Shown in pieces: positions 7,851 to 34,463 of a DNA stretch of 35,443 nt. Under the pieces are notes generated by a model, which saw nothing but the letters and a program-made list of their open reading frames with translations, was not told where the DNA came from and did not search any database. Source of the DNA: an uncultured delta proteobacterium (GTDB lineage: Bacteria > Desulfobacterota > WTBG01 > CAIYCZ01 > CAIRTM01); the NCBI GenBank assembly GCA_963804955.1, contig CAWDSQ010000029.1:1-35443 (forward strand), given 5' to 3'. Both the position numbers and the translations under genes were made by a program. The number at the start of each line of letters is the position of its first letter. Within the stretch, counting starts at the first letter, position 1.

Positions 7851-8015
7851 AGCAGGGTGTTGAAAAAACCAATAGGGGAAGGCTGTTCAAAAATGCCCGG
7901 ACGCAAGGCGTGCGATATCATGCGCAATGAGCCGTACTTTTTCTACGCCGCAGTGAAGCATGGTGAGCGAAATCCCGCTCCAGCGGGACAGATGGGCGTT
8001 TTTCAACAGCCTGCT
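7851..8015. mobile_element. MITE-like element with 17-bp terminal inverted repeats
   Basis: AGCAGGGTGTTGAAAAA (7851-7867) vs TTTTTCAACAGCCTGCT (7999-8015), 16/17 complementary; second left-end-like GGCTGTTCAAAAA at 7881. Confidence 0.7.
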
Positions 8016-8024
8016 AAAGCTAGT

Positions 8025-11172: not shown

Positions 11173-13332
11173 ATGTCTCGATCAGGCATAACAATTCTGT
11201 GGTGTGCTGTGCTGGCGGCCCTTTTCTGTTTTGCTGCCGGGTGTAAAAAAATGCATCAGCGCACAACACCCGATCTGGTCAGCTTTACCGCCTGCAGCGA
11301 TCTTGAGCTCAGGCTCAAAGACAATCTCCGGCAGGAGATGCGCGCCAGCCTCCTTTCCTATACTGATGCCATGCTCTACGCCCCTGAAACCGGCGGCATG
11401 CCGCCGGGCGGGCCGCGAAGCGACAGCGCCTTTGATAACGGCAATGGCCCTGCGGAAGGAGTTGACTACTCTGGCACCAACAATCAGGAGCCGGGTGTCG
11501 ATGAAGCCGATTTCACCAAAACCGACGGGCACTCTCTCTTTGTGCTGGACAATAATACTTTCATGATGCTTGCCATTCCGGCATTCGGCAGTATCGACGG
11601 GGGGACTGCAACGCGGATTGAGGGCTCTGCCCTTGAGATGCTTATTCACAAACAATCCCCCGGCGGCAGAGCTGACCGGGCGATTGTTTTTTCATCGCTG
11701 TATCCGTACGCCCTTCCTGCAGCGCATCCCCTGCACCCCTTTATCGAAACGGCGCCGGGGCCCGCGGCAAACGACAGCAGCAGGCTGTATCGCACATCCG
11801 TCCTGACAAAAATCACCGTTCTGGACCTGCAGGGGGCCGATGCTCCGCAGGTGAGCAGGGAGTTTTATGTGGAGGGCGCATACCAGACGGCACGCCTGAT
11901 TGAAAGCTTCGTGCACATGGCCTCCTATGCCTGGATGGATGTGCCGGGACTTGTCTACTGGCCCGACCTGCCGGACATGTATTATTCCATCACCAGCCCA
12001 GCCCTGCGCAGGCTTATCTGGAACCAGGCCGCTGCGAGGGCCATTGCTGAAAATGAAGCGCTCATAAACAGGCTGACGCTTCAAGACCTCGTACCGCGCC
12101 GGTATGAGCTTGCGGGCTCAACGCTGATCGAGCATGACAGTGCGGCAGAGTCCTGCGGCAATTTCAGCATCGCAGAAGACGGGGTCAGCCGAGGCTATAC
12201 CTCCATCCTGAGCCTTGACCTGCTGGCCGAGACCATGCAGCCTGATGATCGGCATATTGTCAGCAACTGGTCAACGGTCTATGCCAGTGACGACACCCTG
12301 CTGCTTGCCGAGCCGTCCAATGCGTCATGGTGGTACACGGCCGACAGTGCGTTTGAAGAAGCAACCAACATTCATAAATATATTCTTGATAACGGAACCT
12401 CTCTCTATGCGGGCAGCGGAAGAGTTGACGGCACTGTCGGCAGCCAGTTCTGCCTTTCCGAGTATGAAGGGGCTGTGCGCGTTGCCGCCACCACGAATGC
12501 ATGGGGCCGCTGGTGGAGCCAGACTCCGGCTGAGCCTGAAAATCATGTCTACGTGCTCACCCCTGCAGACAATGGCAGCCTCAGCATCACCGGCCACCTT
12601 GGCGGTATTGCTCCGGGCGAGAGCATCTGGGCGGCGCGGTTTATCGGCGCGAAAGGATATCTGGTCACCTTCCGCAATACGGACCCCCTGTGGACCATTG
12701 ACCTCAGCAACCCGTCTGAGCCCGCGGTCATCGGCGAAATCCAGGTGCCCGGCGTCTCAACCTATATTCACCCGATTTCTGATGACCGCCTGCTCACTAT
12801 CGGTTATGGCGGTGACGAAAACGGCCTTGACGGATCCATTATGGTGTCACTTTTTGATGTCTCGGATTTCAGCAACCCCCTCATGGTCGATAACCTGACG
12901 CTCTTTGTTAATCAGAGCGATAATGGCAGCTCCACCTGGGGGTACAGCGAGGCTGCCTACGAACACAAGGCCTTCCAGTACTGGGAGCCGGAACAGCTGC
13001 TTGCCGTGCCCCTGAGCGCTTCCACCTCCTCATGGGACGTCTCGGGCAACTGGAGCTACAGCTACATAAGCAAACTTGTGCTCATCAAGGTCGATCCTGC
13101 CGCGGGCTTTACCATCCATGGAACTGTTGACCATTCAAATTATTACAACAGTGACACGGACTGCTACTGGAGCAGCCAGGATATCCGCCGCAGCATATTC
13201 ATGGGAGAGTATATATACGCGCTCAGCGACCGGGCGGTCACCGTCAATCTGACCGACAACATGACCGAAACTGACGCGATTGAACTGCCCGGCACCTGCT
13301 ATGAAGGCATTGTATACCGTGACATTGAATAG
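11173..13332 (+). CDS. Lipoprotein with C-terminal beta-propeller domain (Beta_propel family)
   Basis: AAAGGA RBS; lipobox FAAGC; YSGTNNQEPGVDEADFTKTDG, GESIWAARF, YLVTFRNTDPLWTIDLSNP and IRRSIFMGEYIYALS motifs. Confidence 0.9.
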   Translation: MSRSGITILWCAVLAALFCFAAGCKKMHQRTTPDLVSFTACSDLELRLKDNLRQEMRASLLSYTDAMLYAPETGGMPPGGPRSDSAFDNGNGPAEGVDYSGTNNQEPGVDEADFTKTDGHSLFVLDNNTFMMLAIPAFGSIDGGTATRIEGSALEMLIHKQSPGGRADRAIVFSSLYPYALPAAHPLHPFIETAPGPAANDSSRLYRTSVLTKITVLDLQGADAPQVSREFYVEGAYQTARLIESFVHMASYAWMDVPGLVYWPDLPDMYYSITSPALRRLIWNQAAARAIAENEALINRLTLQDLVPRRYELAGSTLIEHDSAAESCGNFSIAEDGVSRGYTSILSLDLLAETMQPDDRHIVSNWSTVYASDDTLLLAEPSNASWWYTADSAFEEATNIHKYILDNGTSLYAGSGRVDGTVGSQFCLSEYEGAVRVAATTNAWGRWWSQTPAEPENHVYVLTPADNGSLSITGHLGGIAPGESIWAARFIGAKGYLVTFRNTDPLWTIDLSNPSEPAVIGEIQVPGVSTYIHPISDDRLLTIGYGGDENGLDGSIMVSLFDVSDFSNPLMVDNLTLFVNQSDNGSSTWGYSEAAYEHKAFQYWEPEQLLAVPLSASTSSWDVSGNWSYSYISKLVLIKVDPAAGFTIHGTVDHSNYYNSDTDCYWSSQDIRRSIFMGEYIYALSDRAVTVNLTDNMTETDAIELPGTCYEGIVYRDIE

Positions 13333-13404
13333 CCTGCCCCCGGGGGGATTTAATGAGATCGGCAAACCCCTCGGCCAAAGCTTTTCACAGGCTACAAGGG
13401 GGCA

Positions 13405-13430
13405 GCCTAAAGAGCCCCTTCTCTTTAGGC
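13405..13430. terminator. Hairpin between convergent genes (probable terminator)
   Basis: Perfect 10-bp stem GCCTAAAGAG-CCCCTT-CTCTTTAGGC. Confidence 0.55.
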
Positions 13431-13437
13431 CACTGCT

Positions 13438-13593
13438 TTATTTCTGCCCGGCCTTATCGTCTTTAACCTGATGTTCCGCCGCCTGGCGGTTTTGAGGCAT
13501 CAGTCAGGTCTTAAAGCCGAATTTAGGCAGCACATAAGCCTGAAGGATAAACCAGCCTGCTAAAAAGGCAATCAGTATAAGGATTTCTTTCAT
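13438..13593 (-). CDS. Small membrane protein, candidate selenoprotein (51 aa if UGA30 is Sec; otherwise 29 aa, 13504-13593)
   Basis: GGAGG RBS, then MKEILILIAFLAGWFILQAYVLPKFGFKT-UGA-LMPQNRQAAEHQVKDDKAGQK-TAA; SECIS-like hairpin directly after the UGA. Confidence 0.6.
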
Positions 13594-13703
13594 ACCGCCT
13601 CCGCGTTCGTGTGTTTATATCATTTTTTAAAAATACTGTTCGCTACGCTATGACCTGCTGTCCCGCATCAACGGATTAATTCCACGGCCTGCGGCAGAGC
13701 CGC

Positions 13704-14051
13704 TCAGGGATTGTTGCGGTCATCCGGATTGTCAGTTTCCTCGTCCTCGCTGTCCTGCATATTGCCCGTAGCGCCTTGTGTACTGCCTCTCCCCGTGGCG
13801 CCCCTTGGCGCCGTTTTCCCGGTGACGCTTCCCGAACCCATACTCCCCGTAGCCTTCGCTGGGGCCTGTTTCCCCGTAACGCTTCCGGAACCCATGCTCC
13901 CCATGGCGCCTTGTGTGCTCCCGCTGCCCGTAGCGCCTACCGGGGGCTTCCCCACTGTGGCGTCTTGTTTCCCACCGGTCTGCGCAAAGCTCGGGCCGGC
14001 CAGACAGATAATAAATAAGCCCGCAACTGCCAGGTAATATCCGCTCTTCAT
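13704..14051 (-). CDS. Small secreted Gly/Ser/Thr-rich repeat protein
   Basis: AGGAGG RBS; signal peptide ending SFA; GATGxGSTQGA x2 and GSMGSGSVTGK x2; acidic tail. Confidence 0.75.
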   Translation of the reverse strand: MKSGYYLAVAGLFIICLAGPSFAQTGGKQDATVGKPPVGATGSGSTQGAMGSMGSGSVTGKQAPAKATGSMGSGSVTGKTAPRGATGRGSTQGATGNMQDSEDEETDNPDDRNNP

Positions 14052-14486
14052 ATCGTACCTCCTTTGTATGATGGTCAATGAATCAATACACCATACCTTA
14101 TAATATAGAGACCATCGGGAAAGATTGCAATCGATTACGCGCAGGCCGCGCATCGCCATGTGTACCAGGCGGTCTTTGTCGATGGGAATTCATGGCGCAA
14201 CGAGTCCTGCCGGTTGTGGCATAAAAGATAAAATCCCCATTGTATCCTTTTTGAATTGCCTTGCAAACCGGGGCAGGTTCAGCAGATATTCACATATTTC
14301 AACAGTGCCTACTTGAAATCCTGCTGATTACTAGCTATGAGATACCTACTGGTAAGCTTAGTGTATCGGCCTGCAGCAGGGGCAGACAGTATAGAGCTGA
14401 GCTGCCGCGGTAATGATTCATCGCAGGCGGCAATCGGCATGCCTCCATGCCTGTGGGCATAACCACTCTGGATAAGGAGTACGCGC

Positions 14487-14885
14487 ATGAATGGACTAAT
14501 TCGAAACAAAAACAAGCGGGTCGCGGCGCTTGCTCTGACATGTGCCGCACTGTTTTTTGCAGGCGGGTGCGTCACAACTCCCGGCAGCAGCAGCACAGCA
14601 GCAATGAAAATAGCCGAAAGTGAGCGCTCCATTGATGCTGCGCGGCATGACTGTGTTCACAACGAAGCTGATGTGAAAAACGCCGAGCTTAAGCTGAAGC
14701 AGGCCAGGGAGGCTTTGGATGCGCAGGATTATCCTGGTGCAGCCTGGCGGGCTGATGAGGCTACGGCAGATGCGAATTATGCCCGCACAAAGGCTGCACA
14801 AGAGCAGGCCGAGCAGTCTGCAGAACAGCTTCAAAAGTCAAATGAGAGACTGAAAAAAAGTCTCAACGACGCCAAAAGTTATTGA
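14487..14885 (+). CDS. DUF4398-type helical lipoprotein
   Basis: AAGGAG RBS; lipobox FAGGC; AELKLKQAREAL...ADEATADANYARTKA. Confidence 0.8.
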   Translation: MNGLIRNKNKRVAALALTCAALFFAGGCVTTPGSSSTAAMKIAESERSIDAARHDCVHNEADVKNAELKLKQAREALDAQDYPGAAWRADEATADANYARTKAAQEQAEQSAEQLQKSNERLKKSLNDAKSY

Positions 14886-14897
14886 GGGAGGAGCACC

Positions 14898-15362
14898 ATG
14901 ACCGTCAAAATGCATGCCCTGTCCGGATATGGGCTCATACTGGCACTTGCACTCATATTTTCAGGCTGCGCAGCATCCCGGCAGGAAATAATGGCGAGGG
15001 ATCATCTGGCAAACGCCCGGGCAGCCTATAACCAGGCGAAAGCCGATCCCACGGTAGAAGCTAATGCCCCGATGTCGCTCATGGATGCCGGCAAAACTCT
15101 TGAAGCCGCTGAGCAGGCCCGTGATTTTAATGAAATGAACCACCTTGCCTACATGGCTGAAAGAGCAACTCAAATCGCTACTGCCATCGCACGCATACAA
15201 GCAGCCCGGCAGAAAAGCGACAAGCTTCGCCTCGAAAACGATCAGATGCTCCGGCAGCTAGACGCTCGCGCACGATCAGCAGTGGACCCTGAAGCGGACA
15301 GGCGTGAGGACCGTGCAAAGGCGGAAGAGGAGCGCAGGCAAGGCGCACCGCAGCATGACTGA
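14898..15362 (+). CDS. DUF4398-type helical lipoprotein (no OmpA domain)
   Basis: GGAGGAG RBS; lipobox FSGC; ARAAYNQAKADP...HLAYMAERATQIA. Confidence 0.78.
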   Translation: MTVKMHALSGYGLILALALIFSGCAASRQEIMARDHLANARAAYNQAKADPTVEANAPMSLMDAGKTLEAAEQARDFNEMNHLAYMAERATQIATAIARIQAARQKSDKLRLENDQMLRQLDARARSAVDPEADRREDRAKAEEERRQGAPQHD

Positions 15363-15487
15363 GCCATGGCCCATGCGTTGCCATGTGCCGTGACACTACA
15401 CGTGATGTACAACTGTTATTATTCAGCCGGTCTGTCGATTAAAACAGCGGCTGGTGATCCGGATTAACTGGTTACACCTGCTCTCCC

Positions 15488-21150: not shown

Positions 21151-21468
21151 TCAGCAGGCTGCGGAAGCGGCTTGCTTTTTAACCGGCGGAATCTTTTTAT
21201 ATTCGCCCGCATTGCGCTGAAGGGTATCCCACATATCCACATCCATTTGAAGCCCCAGCCAGAAATCCGGAGTTGTATTAAAATACTGCGCAAGGCGAAA
21301 GGCGGTATCGGTTGTAATTGATCTCTTTCCAAGCACAATCTCGTTTACCCGCACTCTGGTAATGCCGATAGCCGTGGCAAGCTGCAGCTGGGTCATGCCC
21401 AGCGGCTCCAGGAACTCATATTTCAATATTTCCCCCGGAGGGGTTGGCCGCCTGTGTTTAGGTAACAT
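21151..21468 (-). CDS. higA: HigA family antitoxin (Xre HTH)
   Basis: PTPPGEILKYEFLEPLGMTQ...ITTDTAFRLAQYFNTTPDFWLGLQ. Confidence 0.93.
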   Translation of the reverse strand: MLPKHRRPTPPGEILKYEFLEPLGMTQLQLATAIGITRVRVNEIVLGKRSITTDTAFRLAQYFNTTPDFWLGLQMDVDMWDTLQRNAGEYKKIPPVKKQAASAAC

Positions 21469-21479
21469 GGTGCACCTCG

Positions 21480-21761
21480 TTAATGGTATTGGGTTAATTC
21501 AAGGTTTACAATTTCGCCGTCTTTAAACAGAAAGCATAATCTCCATGGCCCGTTGACCGAGATAGCCCACTGGCCTTTGCGGTCGCCGCGGAGCTGATGC
21601 AGGTGGTTTGAAGGCGGCGAGCAGATGTCCTTGAGCTCCCGTGCACGGTGAAGCATATCCATCTTCCGCAGCAGCTGTGCAACAAGTTCCGGCTGCACTC
21701 TTTTGTGCCTGCCGTTATGCCAGAAGTCTTCAAGCCATGGTTGGGCAAAAGATTTGATCAT
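21480..21761 (-). CDS. higB: HigB (RelE/ParE family) toxin
   Basis: MIKSF...PPSNHLHQLRGDRKGQWAISVNGPWRLCF...YH, upstream of higA. Confidence 0.93.
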   Translation of the reverse strand: MIKSFAQPWLEDFWHNGRHKRVQPELVAQLLRKMDMLHRARELKDICSPPSNHLHQLRGDRKGQWAISVNGPWRLCFLFKDGEIVNLELTQYH

Positions 21762-21962: not shown

Positions 21963-22253
21963 ATGGATAAAATAATATTTACCTGGGATGATCGTAAAGC
22001 AACCGAAAATCTGCGCAAGCACGGCGTTTCATTCGAAGAAGCTGCCACCGTATTTATGGATGAACATGCCAGACTTTTGCATGACCCGGATCATTCCGGT
22101 GATGAAGACCGTTTTATTCTTCTTGGATTGTGTTCAGTCATTCGTTTGCTTGTTGTCTGCCACGCCTATAGAAGTAATGATCAGGAAATACGAATCATTT
22201 CATCTCGAAAAGCAAATAAACAAGAAACCAAACAGTACAGAGGTTTTATATGA
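21963..22253 (+). CDS. brnT: BrnT family toxin
   Basis: FTWDDRKATENLRKHGVSFEEAATVF...EDRFILLG...IRIISSRKA. Confidence 0.93.
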   Translation: MDKIIFTWDDRKATENLRKHGVSFEEAATVFMDEHARLLHDPDHSGDEDRFILLGLCSVIRLLVVCHAYRSNDQEIRIISSRKANKQETKQYRGFI

Positions 22254-23126: not shown

Positions 23127-23489
23127 CTACATGCTGAACCGGTCACAGTTTGTGACCAGTTCATTTTTTTCTTTCCGGGTTAGCTGAAACATGAAATCTT
23201 GAGGGAAACGGCTGCTATTTCGTTTAACCGCCTGTTTTAGGACTTTTGTATCTACAGCGTAGAGAGCTGCCAGATCGCGGTCGAGCATTACCTTCTGCCC
23301 GCGGATCAGGTAGGTTTTATTGTCTTCAGGAAAATTATCGCCTATGGCGATGTTTTTCAGAAGGAGGCAACTTAAACACTTCGTATTTTTTGCTTTCCGC
23401 CCTTTTAGGGCGAAAGCAAGCCCCCTGCTGTGCAGATGGTTGTTGGCTACGTTGAGTTCAACCGGAACAGGCTGCTTTGAATCCCCCAT
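23127..23489 (-). pseudogene. ORF6N-domain DNA-binding protein, C-terminally truncated, with in-frame ~126-bp insertion
   Basis: [12 protein letters not shown][42 aa][50 protein letters not shown]. Confidence 0.8.
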
Positions 23490-25665: not shown

Positions 25666-25848
25666 GTGTCAACCGTACGGATATGCGTCGTGCATCATAT
25701 GTGTTTGTACATATAACTAAATGCGTTTATTTGCAACAGGCATGCGGCACTATGTTCGCAGGGGCGTTCGGCTGGAGCAATTAACTAAATCGTGTAGACT
25801 ACAATCAAAGCATAGTTGAACGTGTCAGCAGTAGTGCTTCATTGCGTG

Positions 25849-25913
25849 CCATTTCCGCTTGACGGGAATCCCTTTTGGCACGCAGAAAAATGATTCCGGA
25901 CAAGCCGGAATGA
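25849..25913. repeat. GTCAT-type double-hairpin repeat (degenerate)
   Basis: CCATTTCCGCTTGACGGGAATC ... GATTCCGGACAAGCCGGAATGAC. Confidence 0.55.
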
Positions 25914-25996
25914 CTGGGTGTGTTCCTCGATACCACATGAATACCGGTTATAGTAATTTATTAAAAGCTCTAAACGCCCGGTGTGCGGTGTAAAAA

Positions 25997-26046: not shown

Positions 26047-27680
26047 TCACGCCGCCTGAACAGTGCGCTGGGTTTTGCTGACATAGTATTCGTAGCTGCC
26101 TTCATAGATGATCATCTCGCCGTGGTCGATCTCAAACACGCGGCCCACGAGGCAGCGGAGGAAATAGCGGTCGTGGCTGACCAGCACCACCGTGCCGGTA
26201 AACTTGGCAAGGGCCTGCAGCAGTATCTGGCGCGACTGGAAATCGAGATGATTGGTGGGCTCATCCAGTATCAGCAGATTTAAGGGCCGGGCAAGCAGCG
26301 TTGCCAGCAGCACCCTGCTTTTCTCGCCGCCGGAGAGCAGCTTGATGCGCTTCTCAACAGCATCGCCCTGAAACAGAAATGCCGCGCAGAGATTTCTGAC
26401 CACGCCGATATTTGCCATGGGTATGGCATCCTGCACAGTTTCGTACACGGTTTTGTCGGGATCGAGCAGGTCCATGGCATGCTGGCTGAAATAGCCGGGC
26501 ATAACGTTTGCGCCGATGGCAAGGCTGCCGGTTGTGGGTTCGGTCTGGCCGGCCAGCACTTTCAGAAAGGTCGACTTGCCCGCGCCGTTGACGCCAACCA
26601 CGGCGATCTTGTCCTGCCGCCGGATGGTGCCCGATACGCCGCCGAAGACCGATTTCTCTGTGCCGTCGTCATGCTGCCACACCTTGCCGAGATTCACAAT
26701 GCGGGCCACATCATCGCCCGAGCGCGGCGGCTCGGCAAACTCAAAGGATACGACCCTCTGCTCGGGCGGCAGCTCGATGCGCTCGATTTTATCTATCTTC
26801 TTCACCCGCGACTGCACCTGCGAGGCATGGGAGGCCCGGGCGGCAAAGCGCGCGATGAAGTCCTCTTCCTTGGCAAGCATTTCCTGCTGCCGGCGATAGC
26901 TGGCCAGCAGCTGCTCGCGCCTGATCTCGCGCTCGCGCAGGTAAAAGTCGTAATTGCCCGAATAGGTGGTGAGGCTCTGGTTGGCAACCTCGATAATGCG
27001 CGACACGATGCGGTTCATGAAATCGTGATCATGGCAGGTCATGAGAAGCGCGCCCTTAAACTGCGTGACAATCCAGTCTTCGAGCCAGACGATGGACTCA
27101 AGGTCAAGATGGTTGGTCGGCTCGTCAAGCAGCAGCACATCGGGGTTGATGGTAAGTATTTTCGCCAGCTCGATGCGCATTTTCCAGCCGCCGCTGAAGG
27201 ACTCAACGGGCCGGTCATAATCATCGGGGCCAATGCCAAGGCCGGTCAGCACGGTCTGCGCGCGAGACTCAAGGTCATAGCCGCCGCTGTGCTCGAACTG
27301 CTCCACGGCATTGCCGTAGCGCTCAAGCAGCTCGCCATTTCCTCATCAGCCATGGGCAGGGCCATGGCCTGCTCCATCCGGCGTATCTCCTCCCCCAGGC
27401 TCATCACATCCCCTACGGCCGACATGACCTCGCCAAGGGCGGTCCGGCCGGCCATATCGCCCACATCCTGGGAGAAATAGCCGATTTTCGTGCGCTTCGG
27501 GACCGATATATCGCCAGTGTCAGCCTCTTCCTGACCGGTAATGAGGCGGAAGATGGTGGTCTTGCCCGCGCCGTTTGGCCCCACCAGGCCCGTGCGCGTG
27601 CCGGGCAGGATCTGAAGGCTCGCATTCTTGAAGAGGATCTGCGAGCCGTGCTGCTTGCTGATATTGGTAATATGGATCAT
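26047..27680 (-). CDS. ABC-F family ATPase; frameshift near 27330
   Basis: GPNGAGKT, FSGGWKMR, LLLDEPTNHLD, second Walker A GVNGAGKST, LSGGEKSR, VSHDRYF. Confidence 0.93.
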
Positions 27681-29405: not shown

Positions 29406-31314
29406 ATGACTTACATCGCATCACCATTTGCCATCGGTATATTCGTCGCTTTCGTGCTGGGCGTGTTGGGCCTGTCGTCCTACTTCGCTAAAAAAACCCA
29501 GTCTTCCAAAGGGTATTACGCCGCCGGCGGAACCATCCACTGGGCCGTGAACGGCATCGCCTTCGCCGGAGACTATCTTTCAGCCGCCTCCTTTCTCGGG
29601 ATCTGCGGCATGATCGCCTTTGACGGCTATGACGGCTTTCTTTACTCCATCGGCTATCTCGCCGGCTGGGTGGTGGCCCTGTTCGTGGTGGCCGAGCCCC
29701 TGAAGCGCTTCGGGAAATACACCTTCACCGATGCGCTCAACTACAAGTTCAGCTCCAAGGGAATCATGTTCACCGCAGCCATCAGCACCCTGGTGGTGTC
29801 GGTATGCTACCTCATCCCCCAGATGGTCGGCGCCGGCGACCTGGTCACCCCGCTTCTGGGGCTTCCCCATTACGCGGGCGTCATCCTCGTCGGCGTCATC
29901 GTTATCTTCATCGTGGCCACCGCGGGCATGACCTCAACCACCTATGTGCAGTTCATCAAGGGCGGACTGCTGATCGTCTTTTCAACGATCCTGACCATCG
30001 CCATCCTCAAGAACGGCATTAACACCCCCCCGTATGCAAACTATCACAAGTTTCAAAACCATCGAAGCCACCCTGACAAACGACGCCGTTACCGCGGTGG
30101 CGGATCCGGCCTACACCGTCGCCGGCACCTTCAAGGACGGCAAGAACCTCTTTGCCAAACTCAGACAGGACGGCGTTGCCTCCTGGTGGCAGTGTGAGCG
30201 CCAAAGACGGCGGAACAGTGCTGAAGGAAGCCCTGTCCATGACAAAGACCGCCGACGGGAAGATCCTGTATAACGGCGAGCCGAAGGAGGCCAAGAAATT
30301 CTTCCAGGTCGGCCATGCCAGCAAGATCATCGTGGACGGCAAGGAAGTGGAGAAAACCGGCGCCCTCGGGCCCTTTGAATTCTTGGCCACCATTGATCAT
30401 CCGAAGTGGTCCGCTTTGCCAAGGCAGCCGTCAAGGACGGAAGCGACAAGGTCACCGTCTGGAGGCAGAACCCCACCTCGGGCTGCAGACATCATGCGGC
30501 CGGGCCTCAAGTTCAAGGTCGACAAGGGAGCCGACTTCATGTCGCGCCTGAATTTCATTTCGCTCATGATCGCCCTGTTCTTCGGCACCTCGGCCCTGCC
30601 CCATATTCTCATCCGCTACTACACCGTCCCGAGCCCCAAGGATGCCCGCAAGTCAACCATCGTGGCCATCGGCTCCATCGGCTTTTTCTACATTCTGACC
30701 CTGTTCATGGGCCTTGGCGCCATGATGACGCGGCGTTCTTGACATGGAGAGCAGCAACATGTCGGCGCCGCTGCTGGCGAAATACTTCGGCGTCACGATC
30801 TTCTCCTGCATCTGCGCCATCGCCTTCGCAACGGTTCTCGGAACGGTGAGCGGGCTCATCGTTGCGGCCTCAGGCGCGGTGGCCCATGATCTGATGACGG
30901 GATTTCTGGGCATCGAGATGACGGACAAGGGGCAGGTGAAGGCAGGCAAAATATCAGCGGTTGTTGTCGGCATCATCGCCATTATCCTGGGCATTTTATG
31001 CAAGGGCATGAATGTTTCATTTCTTGGTCGGCCTTGCATTTGCAGTTGCCGCCTCGGCAAACCTGCCGGCCATCACCATGCTGCTGTTCTGGAAAAAGAC
31101 GACCTCCAAGGGCATCGCGGCATCCATCGTGGTCGGCATGGTCACGGCGCTGGGCATCATTCTGCTGTCGCCCAGCACCTATGTCGACCTGTACGGCCTG
31201 CCCAAAGCCTCAGCGCCGATACCCCTTGACAACCCGGGCATCATTTCAATACCCCTGGGCTATCTGACGCTTATTGTCGTATCGCTGTTTACGCAGAAAA
31301 AAGCCGCCGCCTGA
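29406..31314 (+). CDS. actP: Cation/acetate symporter ActP (sodium:solute symporter family); several frameshifts
   Basis: NGIAFAGDYLSAASFLG, YLIPQMVGAG, GTSALPHILIRYYTVP, AFATVLGTVSGL and AFAVAASANLP motifs across consecutive frames. Confidence 0.9.
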
Positions 31315-31521: not shown

Positions 31522-34463
31522 ATGTTTGCCCCGCACATATCAACTCAGTGGAAGTCCTTTGCGGTACGGTTCGTTTTCCCGACGGCTGTCACCATAGCGC
31601 TGTTTGTCATCGCCTTCTTTTCCGTTATTATCCCCGCCATTGAAAAAAACAGCATGGACCGCAAGCGGGAAATGATCCGCGAGCTGACCAACTCGGCCTG
31701 GAATATTCTCGCGAAGCTCGAGCATGATGAAAAGCAGGGACTGCTCACGCGGCCGCAGGCCCAAAGCCAGGCCATCGAGCAGATTAAAAACCTGCACTAC
31801 GGCCAGGAGATGAAAGACTATTTCTGGATAAACGACATGCACCCGCGCATGGTTATCCACCCCTACCGGACCGATCTCAACGGCAAAGACCTGTCCGATT
31901 ACACCGACCCCGAAGGCAAGCGGGTTTTTGTGGATTTTGTCGACCTGGTGAAGCGGCAGGGCGCCGGCTATATGCAGTACATGTGGCAGTGGAAGGATAG
32001 AGAGGACCGCATCCTGCCGAAGCTCTCCTATGTCAAAGGGTTCCAGCCCTGGGGCTGGGTCATCGGAACCGGCATTTATATCGACGATGTCCAGGTGGAA
32101 ATCAGGGAAATCACGCGCAACCTTTTTGAAATTTCCCTTTTCATCCTGCTGATCATCTCGCTGCTGCTGGCGAGCATCATCAGGCAAAGCTACGCCACGC
32201 TCCGGCAGCAGCAGCTCGCGGAGCAGGCCCTGCGCGATTCCGAAGAAAAATACCGCACCCTTGTCGAATCGGCAGGCGAAGGCATGCTCATGGCCCTTGA
32301 AGGCACCTATATGCATGCCAACCAGACAATAGCTGCCATGCTGGAATACGACAAAAGCGAGTTTGCCGGCATGCCGGTGCGCACGGTACTGGCAGAATCA
32401 AACGGCCCGCAGAGCAGCCTGCTCCTTGAGGAGCTGCTGGCCGGCAAATCGGTTCCTGCAACCTTTGAAGCGCGGCTCAAAACAAAGTCGGGCGCAACCC
32501 GGGATGTTATTCTGTCGGCATCCCCTATTGAGGTCGGCGGCAAAACCGGCTTCATGGCCGTGGTCACCGATATTACCAAGCGCAAGCAGGCAGAGGATGC
32601 CCTGGGCCGCAGCGAAGAAAAATTCAGAACACTTGCCAACAATCTCAACGTGGGCATTTTCCGGCGGACCCTCGGCCCGAACCCGAAATTTATCGAGGCA
32701 AATCCTGAACTGGTAAAACTGCTGGGCTACGCAAGCAAGGAGGACCTGCTGGCGACCCCGGTCATAAGCCTGTACTGCAACCCCGAAGACCGCAAAACCC
32801 TGGAGCCGAAAGCATCTGCCGAGGAATTGAAAAGGGAGATCGTCAGGCTCAAGAAACAAGACGGCTCCGTATTTATAGCCTCCATCTGGGGCGTCATGGT
32901 CGAAGACGAAGACGGCGTGCCGCGATACTGCGACGGCATCATGGAAGATATTACCGAGCTGCATATGCGGGAGGAGGAAGGGGAAAAACTCCTTGACGAA
33001 ACGCAGTCGGTGCTGCTGTTTTACAATCAGCCCCTTGGCGGCCTGCCCTGTCGCCAGCCGACACTATGCCATCCCGGCATGCCGATCGGGGAAGCGGTGC
33101 GCTTGCTGGAGCAGCAGCGCAACGAGGTCCTGCTGGTGCGCGATGCAGAGGGCAGGGACTGCGGCGTCATCACCGACCATGATCTGAGAAAGGCCGTGAT
33201 GCTCCTGCACGAGCATGAGGATCGCCCGGTATCCGAGATCATGTCGTCTCCCGTTATTTCACTGCCGGGCAATGCATCGGTATTCGAGTCCTGGTGGCTT
33301 ATGCAGAATAAGGGCATTGCCCATCTTTTCGTCACCGATACCGATGGCGCCATCATCGGCTTGATCAACAGCAAGGATATCGCCGCCATTCAGAAGTATT
33401 CGCCGGCGGTGCTGCTCTGGGAAATACGCAATGACACATCACCCGACGAGGTGATCAGGCATAATGAGGTCCTCCCCTATCTCATAACAACCCTTATCAA
33501 AAGCGGCGCGAAACCTCAAAGCATAAACCATCTGACCACCATCGTGATCGACACGATTCTGCAGAAGCTCATGGAATTTGCCATCCGGGAGCTGGGCCCG
33601 CCCCCGGTGCGGTTTGCTTTTCTGGTGTTCGGCAGCGAGGGCCGGCAGGAACAGACCCTCATGACCGACCAGGACAATGCGATTATTTTCGAGGATACCA
33701 GCCGCCGACCTGGAGTCATCGGTTGTACAGGCATATTTCCTCAAACTGGGCGCCATGGTCTGCAGATGGCTGAACCATGCCGGGTATCACTACTGCGATG
33801 GCAACAACATGGCGCAAAACCCCCAGTGGTGCCAGCCCCTTACCGTATGGAAGCGGTATTTCAGCCAGTGGATTCATGCGGCTTCGGCTGAAGACCTCCT
33901 GAAAACAAAAATATTTTTCGACTTTCGCTGCGCCTATCGGAGACGGCGGCCTCGCGGGAGAGCTGCGGGATTTTCTTGCTGCCATGGTTGCCGGCAACCC
34001 GAGATTTTTTCAGCTGCTGGCCCGCAATGTTCTGCCGCTCAGCCCGCCCATCGGGCTGTTCGGAAAATTTGTCGTCGAGTCGGTGGACGAGCACCGCAAG
34101 GCCTTTGACATTAAAAGCGCCATGATGCCTATTGTCGACTATGCCCGCATCTATGCCCTCAAGCACGGCGTACCGCGCCACCAACACGCTGGAGCGGCTG
34201 CTGGGGCTGCATGAGCGCGAGCGTACTGACGCTGCAGAATTACCAGGAAATGGTGCAGGCGTACAGCTATCTCATGCAGATACGGCTGCAGGTTCAGGCT
34301 GCGGCAATAGGGTCCGGGAAAGCGAAAGCCCGACAATTATGTGACCCCGAAAAACCTGACCTCTATCGAGCAGAAGCTTCTCAAGGAAATTTTCTCCCAG
34401 ATAAAAAACTTCCAGGCAAAGCTGAGCTATGATTTCACCGGCCAGCTCGGAGGCGTCCAGTGA
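31522..34463 (+). CDS. Membrane sensor: TM-Cache_2-TM, two PAS, CBS pair, DUF294 nucleotidyltransferase, DUF294_C; several frameshifts after 33695
   Basis: YFWIND..MVIHP..KLSYVK..WGWVIGTGIY (Cache); DITKRK/DITE PAC ends; GVITDHDL..VSEIMS (CBS); FGSEGRQEQTLMTDQDNA (33631-33675); CDGNNMAQNPQW, IFFDFR, DIK..PIVDYARIYAL..NTLERL; ends GGVQ-TGA at 34461. Confidence 0.88.

Follow-up and report, generated by a model that had tools for sequence, protein, structure and literature searches.

A 51-codon gene of an uncultured delta proteobacterium very likely encodes a selenoprotein of a widespread, uncatalogued family with a predicted membrane helix

We have analysed a 35,443-nt stretch of DNA (the window) from an uncultured delta proteobacterium, in which a short gene on the minus strand, encoding the product P0001, contains an in-frame UGA at codon 30. 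Sequence comparison indicates that this UGA very likely encodes selenocysteine (Sec) and that P0001 is very likely a selenoprotein, a reading to which we assign a probability of roughly 0.93. From the same comparisons, the P0001 family is very likely an uncatalogued, widespread selenoprotein family lying outside the catalogue and libraries compared. The bacterial selenoproteome would thereby gain a large overlooked family: the 150 matches listed for 401 sampled genomes of the window's phylum come from about 146 of them, and 27 of 251 genomes of a second phylum matched as well.

Organisation of the P0001 gene

The gene and the elements surrounding it are as follows.

13614..13622, minus strand: TG-A-TATAAA, also present in the second genomic copy (sequence; promoter scan negative)
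13598..13602, minus strand: GGAGG, Shine-Dalgarno-like site, 4 nt 5' of the ATG (sequence)
13438..13593, minus strand: predicted selenoprotein P0001, 51-codon ORF, ATG to TAA (sequence and family alignment)
13593-13591, minus strand: start codon ATG (sequence)
13522..13590, minus strand: predicted single membrane helix, residues 2-24, with W14, L17, L22 and P23 conserved (alignment, hydropathy, AlphaFold2)
13504..13506, minus strand: in-frame TGA, codon 30, predicted selenocysteine (TGA 125, Cys 12, TAA/TAG 0 of 137 loci)
13468..13503, minus strand: SECIS-type hairpin; lower stem 13503-13498/13473-13468, upper stem 13489-13485/13480-13476, loop AGGC 13484-13481 (folding and bSECIS test)
13441..13503, minus strand: hydrophilic 21-residue tail, low-confidence coil, no Cys; Cys at +5/+6 in most family members (alignment, AlphaFold2)
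13440-13438, minus strand: stop codon TAA (sequence)
13405..13430, no strand assigned: 10-bp hairpin without a U-tract, between the P0001 gene and a convergent beta-propeller gene (folding, terminator scan)

The original prediction, made from the sequence of the window, had described an ORF running from ATG 13593 through the UGA at 13506-13504 and 21 open codons to the TAA at 13438, and each of these elements was verified in the sequence. The GGAGG proposed as ribosome binding site is present at 13602-13598, though just 4 nt from the ATG; purine-rich stretches, judged by eye, lie upstream of the starts of many homologues. The proposed single transmembrane-like helix is predicted by two approaches, residues 3-22 being hydrophobic with a top 19-residue Kyte-Doolittle mean of 2.43, and AlphaFold2, supplied with a 46-sequence alignment, returning one helix at residues 2-24 (pLDDT 87-91) followed by low-confidence coil, with a pTM of 0.36. 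The hairpin at 13430-13405 described as terminator-like is real, the 60-nt stretch which holds it folding at -20.3 kcal/mol, but it lacks a U-tract and a terminator and promoter scan called no site. We take the TG-A-TATAAA sequence to resemble an extended -10 box. The suggestion that ORF callers had missed the gene is correct for its full length, but the gene is often called in a form shortened to 29 aa, as is the case for P0026 in the window.

The P0001 gene is convergent with a PF09826 beta-propeller gene and has no redox neighbour in the window. Rfam gave no match over 13300-13800. A metatranscriptome contig from a relative (25 differences over 265 nt, depth 3) spans 13461-13725 and is not counted as evidence, since it may derive from library DNA; the other possible RNA run, among four runs examined, yielded nothing for the P0001 gene.

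The codon at the Sec position in homologous genes

The principal evidence comes from homologues. When 401 genomes of the window's phylum were searched with a single sequence, the best 150 matches listed represented about 146 genomes; 149 of these matches contain TGA, the lone exception being a false hit. Named relatives which carry a homologue belong to Deltaproteobacteria, Desulfobacterales, Desulfobacteraceae and Syntrophaceae, together with one Pirellulaceae bin. With the codon at the Sec position located from upstream residues alone, TGA was observed in 64/64 first loci and in 19/20 further loci, the remaining one again a false hit. Among 251 genomes searched in the Pirellulaceae bin's phylum, 27 had a match, with TGA in 26; in the bin's order 31 of 201 genomes had one, 22 with TGA and 9 with TGC or TGT instead. 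Pooled non-redundant loci (n = 137) contain TGA in 125 cases and a Cys codon (TGC/TGT) in 12; TAA or TAG, the outcome named in advance as speaking against Sec, occurs at 0 of these 137 homologous loci. The real stops of the 125 TGA-type genes are TGA in 48, TAA in 47 and TAG in 30.

The 137-locus count leaves out the false hits L070 and L100, L116 (whose match our script failed to locate), L126 (probably a member, with its TGA displaced by one codon), L125 (degenerate, with TGG), the broken paralogue L002 and the duplicates or near-duplicates L013, L051, L090-L092, L095, L096 and L152; loci L157-L174 also lie outside it. At L125 (G633:C61) the TGG stands at the Sec position, the downstream motif is absent, and selB was found in the genome and selA was not; this copy is probably in decay.

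Coding conservation continues past the UGA. The frame remains open for at least 14 codons in 125/125 TGA copies compared with 500/851 true TGA stops, M, L, I or V occupies position +1 in 118/125 compared with 108/851, and Cys is found at +5/+6 in 107/125 compared with 57/851. Cys homologues aligned with the UGA, which the original prediction had proposed should be sought, were recovered as 143 distinct proteins, and 12 genomic loci have TGC/TGT. In the protein databases, 121 family proteins consist of 76 cut at the UGA, 40 Cys forms besides the query and 4 with W at the Sec position, while 144 new top profile matches consist of 89 with C, 25 with W, 22 truncated and 8 with other residues, two of the latter being false or misregistered. 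Judging from the proteins rather than from DNA, the W entries are likely TGA copies translated under another code.

The SECIS-type hairpin

Over the first 40-60 nt counted from the UGA, the fold of lowest energy is the hairpin which follows that codon (-14.2 kcal/mol), with a 5-bp upper stem (CCGCC/GGCGG), G at loop position 2 and a loop located 19 nt from the UGA. The bSECIS model, as set out in section 5 of PMC13188914, specifies a loop of 3-9 nt, G in the first two loop positions, a spacing of 16-37 nt and an energy below -7.5. Scripted by ourselves from that section rather than run as bSECISearch, the model is satisfied by the window hairpin, in agreement with the bacterial SECIS geometry originally claimed for it. 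The test was passed by 110/125 TGA copies (15 failed) vs 4/12 Cys copies and 39/150 sampled true TGA stops of the window's genome. As so many true stops pass the same loose test, the hairpin alone is weak evidence and the case rests on the homologues.

In one planctomycete order, 19/20 TGA copies passed, and the folding energy of the TGA copies differs from that of the 12 Cys copies, 9 from the same order and 3 from metagenomes (p = 0.0009). RNAalifold detected no consensus structure in a 79-sequence alignment. The named 6-pair stem beat 500/500 shuffles on paired cells but had no advantage over itself shifted by +1 or -3. These weak results of structure tests at the alignment level probably reflect variation of the loop length from 3 to 9 nt.

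Sec machinery and genetic code

The Sec machinery, whose presence was to be checked, is complete in the window's genome, with selA, selB and selD above curated cut-offs and tRNA-Sec (selC) found; selD has its own in-frame TGA. UGA is otherwise a stop in this genome, as indicated by the 851 of 1789 long ORFs which end in TGA, and the only UCA-anticodon tRNA found is tRNA-Sec. In the planctomycete order, selA and selB are both present in 19/21 TGA genomes vs 2/9 Cys genomes (Fisher p 5e-4), at least one of the two occurring in 21/21 TGA carriers, and in the second phylum selA is present in 24/26 TGA carriers vs 186/251 genomes overall (p 0.03), the 2 carriers without selA having selB; these p values are overstated because the genomes are related, and therefore not independent, and incomplete.

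Combined, these data bear on two readings in which the UGA does not encode Sec. The first, that it is a true stop terminating a 29-aa peptide, with the downstream ATG or hairpin belonging to a second mini-gene or a terminator, would account for the 29-aa products of gene callers (76/121), the ATG following the TGA at 73/125 loci and the true stops which pass the SECIS test. We consider it very improbable, as TAA or TAG is absent from all 137 loci, 52/125 loci have a codon other than ATG at +1 (CTG in the window), Cys homologues are read through with the same Met at +1, and the TGA form tracks selA and selB. The second, translation of UGA as Trp (codes 4 or 25), is hardly credible: W at the Sec position in 4/121 and 25/144 database proteins and the TGG at L125 are set against termination of 851 long ORFs by TGA, a sole UCA-anticodon tRNA that is tRNA-Sec and genomic homologues which carry Cys codons, with the W entries themselves likely due to translation under another code and the TGG copy lacking the downstream motif.

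A family outside the catalogues compared

The family consensus is helix-LP[KR]xG[IV]xT-U/C-[ML]xxx-C, with W, LP and G invariant in the helix region of the alignment and C-x4-C present in 135/143 Cys-type proteins. Profile searching (E up to 0.001) recovered 2040 clusters at 50% identity. For Pfam, NCBIfam and PDB, the original description of P0001 as a member of no recognised family is borne out: P0001 and 63 members gave no significant match in Pfam and NCBIfam (June 2026; best E 0.015), and a PDB profile search returned a single match with an E of 0.99. In the ESM Atlas a Cys homologue used as query retrieved one unnamed 123-member cluster (score 0.87), which we regard as a lead only. Sources which name members call nearly all of them 'hypothetical', apart from two stray JGI labels, and the Trichlorobacter ammonificans member CAH2030981.1 is annotated as a 29-aa hypothetical peptide. 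The family would also give likely working residues to more than 140 Cys-type hypothetical proteins.

P0001 resembles the bacterial selenoproteins with a SECIS inside the ORF, as described in section 5 of PMC13188914, in combining a UGA and stem-loop, Sec/Cys pairs and Sec machinery. None of the 119 prokaryotic families in Table 1 of that paper fits by description or motif, entries resting only on CDD or PANTHER models having been compared by description, and the sole x4 motif in the table is the UxxxxU of the rhodanese/DsbD-like TsoB. The families of Haft and Tolstoy 2025 appear in this table and in NCBIfam. No description of the family was found in the portions consulted of the literature, including PMC12013277, PMC1976440, bioRxiv 2022.07.06.499078 and PMC13326102; the unnamed candidates of Deng et al. 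2026 could include it. The small NCBIfam selenoproteins KCU-star (NF033934), dual CXXC OS_HP3 (NF041197), SaoC (NF040734) and FmdB-family UxxU are likewise short, uncharacterised and often truncated at the UGA, but have other motifs (CU, RxU, UxxU) and gave no match to the 63 members; FmdB-type genes are neighbours of the P0001 family, not homologues.

Eukaryotic single-span selenoproteins offer a further likeness in layout. According to the parts consulted of PMC5981252 and PMC3628699, SELENOS and SELENOK share with the P0001 prediction a single span and a disordered tail bearing Sec, but they are longer proteins with Sec near the C-terminus (Sec188 and Sec92, respectively) and a SECIS in the 3'-UTR. 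Conversely, members of the P0001 family are 45-75 aa peptides with Sec 6 residues past the helix and a SECIS inside the ORF, Sec lies at least 14 residues from the protein end in 125/125 TGA copies, and the SELENOS and SELENOK Pfam models matched none of the family members scanned. SELENOS, in which Sec resides in a disordered cytoplasmic region and for which thioredoxin-dependent reductase activity and a proposed Sec-Cys bond are described (PMC5981252, in part), may by analogy offer a model for how the P0001 peptide works. A peptide of 50 residues is within reach of synthesis, which opens Sec chemistry at a membrane surface to direct testing, and natural Sec/Cys pairs of nearly the same sequence are available together with a natural variant without the second Cys.

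The Cys-less variant and the second genomic copy

P0001 is one of 17/125 TGA copies without Cys at +1 to +7. The residues after Sec are U-LMPQNRQ, with Arg where others have Cys and CTG at +1, and the stem is re-paired. In the window's class the gene occurs in 11/42 genomes, 10 of which have the Cys-less form; the Sec of this class, mostly lacking the second Cys, would therefore need an intermolecular partner. Two class relatives, G873 (L169, L173) and G876 (L167, L172), have two gene copies each, and of the eleven positive genomes in the class G873 is the one that retains the second Cys. A 32-column tree poorly resolves the Cys-less copies and the Sec/Cys interchanges.

A second copy of the gene is located on contig C30 of the same genome, where the ATG is lost and the upper stem has a 1-nt deletion. 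Window 1-24700 and G000:C30:142600-166200 share ~25 kb at 85-97% identity, and 5/6 tested genes of the C30 block, the selenoprotein paralogue among them, are frameshifted or interrupted; the block may stem from a duplication in decay, from a second strain or from an assembly rich in errors. The C30 copy lacks the 1.8 kb upstream of 13683 (window 13684-15480), so that the P0001 gene with its 90-nt leader does not seem to depend on the upstream ORF. That 1.8-kb region contains a 151-aa ORF with a hydrophobic N-terminus, Gly/Ser/Thr repeats and no family match, plus two DUF4398 ORFs.

These observations raise the question of whether the family is functional and the window's lineage retains a decaying version from which the second Cys has been lost. 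Such decay would fit the lack of Cys after the UGA in P0001, the broken second copy and the restriction of the gene to 11 genomes of the class. However, Cys-less copies across three families of the class retain the TGA, a tail that stays open and a hairpin whose stems have changed without loss of pairing, and the broken copy sits in a block where most of the tested genes are broken. We therefore judge decay improbable.

Fusions, neighbours and a proposed function

Of 12 longer homologues, 8 have a thioredoxin domain (WCGPC/WCSPC) after the motif and 1 a rhodanese domain; P0122, P0126 and P0133 among the 12 are apparent gene-calling artefacts. In-frame thioredoxin fusions are visible in DNA at a TGA-type locus (L023) and a Cys-type locus (L137). 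The Sec side of the helix is net positive in 101/137 members which, together with the thioredoxin fusions, favours a cytoplasmic tail.

Same-strand neighbours were scanned as sets of 114, 84 and 79 proteins, the last being 79 of 101 picked, and are reported as raw counts. They include thioredoxins, ArsR-type regulators, rhodanese-bearing MBL-fold proteins, TauE, a YeeE-type sulfur transporter, DsrE and SQR-like proteins, as well as peroxiredoxin, rubrerythrin and prismane proteins. Genes of these types function in the handling of sulfide/persulfide and of oxidants. At L160 the order is rhodanese, TauE-like, MBL/rhodanese, peroxiredoxin, selenoprotein-family gene and YeeE-type; at L162 it is ArsR-type, selenoprotein-family gene and SQR-like (below the NCBIfam cut-off); and at L157 it is zf-HC2, selenoprotein-family gene, YgaP-like, cydA-like, second membrane protein, RND adaptor and pump. 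The majority of Desulfobacterota-type loci are flanked by unrelated genes, most often by one for an FmdB-type zinc ribbon (14/114 proteins scanned, 2 in the second set). At 16 loci an FmdB-type gene (PF09723) is the immediate upstream neighbour in the same orientation (L031, L038, L040, L044-L046, L052, L054, L058, L060, L062, L064, L084, L086, L098, L099), and a UxxU selenoprotein form of the FmdB family is catalogued in Table 1 of PMC13188914.

The motif, the thioredoxin and rhodanese fusions and the sulfide/persulfide-detoxification operons point to a redox mechanism. On these sequence-based grounds we slightly favour a membrane-tethered selenol acting as a redox handle for reactive sulfur species or peroxides and recycled by thioredoxin. 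SelB would, with the high probability given at the outset, read UGA30 as Sec, and helix 2-24 would anchor the peptide with its tail, as predicted, most likely in the cytoplasm. The selenol would be oxidised or persulfidated by sulfane sulfur or peroxide and, in most members, would then close on the Cys five residues on, thioredoxin subsequently re-reducing the pair. In the Cys-less lineage closure would presumably be on a second copy of the peptide, a partner protein or a small thiol. Against a redox role in the window, the P0001 gene stands alone and the second Cys is absent. A bolder reading is possible, although we place the odds somewhat against it: P0001 would rank among the smallest bacterial selenoproteins and, within Desulfobacterota and anaerobic Planctomycetota, among the most frequent. 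As a bare membrane selenol, it would capture sulfane sulfur or peroxide at the inner membrane face for transfer to thioredoxin, rhodanese/YgaP or cytochrome bd-like partners. It would be a functional counterpart of SELENOS/SELENOK, with the window's clade a one-Sec form working via a Se-Se or Se-S bond between helices.

Two further readings accept a real selenoprotein and assign it a different role. The Sec/Cys centre might bind or sense a metal (Zn, Cu, Hg) at the membrane with no redox cycling, consistent with the two or more further Cys within 24 residues in 57/143 Cys-type proteins and with the zinc ribbons, zf-HC2 proteins, MerR- and ArsR-type regulators and RND adaptor among the neighbours. 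A metal role is nevertheless unlikely, given that the window's class retains Sec and has mostly lost the second ligand, that thioredoxin and rhodanese fusions exist and that His or acidic ligands are not conserved in the alignment.

CydX/CydS-type proteins are single-helix subunits of cytochrome bd. They have one short helix in common with the P0001 family, which occurs near cydA-like genes in one planctomycete order; they show no sequence match to the family, which has a conserved Sec/Cys motif and is mostly unlinked to cyd genes. A conserved planctomycete operon with a divergent cydA-like gene (PF01654, about 52-60 bits) is found at L157:5817-10558, L131, L138, L148, L151, L155 and L129, and its oxidase-like subunits received no NCBIfam name. 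The selenoprotein could serve a membrane complex, such as a cytochrome bd-like oxidase or a YgaP-like protein, as a small accessory or regulatory subunit, in what we liken to a CydX-like role. The gene order zf-HC2, family gene, YgaP-like, cydA-like would suit such a subunit, cydA-like adjoins 6/29 and YgaP-like 5/29 loci of the planctomycete order, and a helix with invariant W, LP and G suggests packing. The cyd/YgaP context is limited to that one order, however, and is absent at most loci including the window, and a weak likeness to ATP synthase subunit b falls short of significance (E 0.022, 2/63 members); we rate the subunit role marginally below metal binding and likewise unlikely.

Other features of the window

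Short intergenic elements at 556-671, 7851-8020, 23315-23450 and 25770-25970 each have several to more than ten diverged copies in the genome, and we take them to be MITE- or REP-like. Three long genes seem to be split over two or three frames (26047-27680, 29406-31314 and 31522-34108), which suggests indel errors or pseudogenes; from their translations, we assume that they encode an ABC ATPase, a solute symporter and a sensor/CBS protein. Small gene pairs at 21151-21761 and 21963-22253 resemble, in our estimation, HigBA- and BrnT-type toxin-antitoxin modules.
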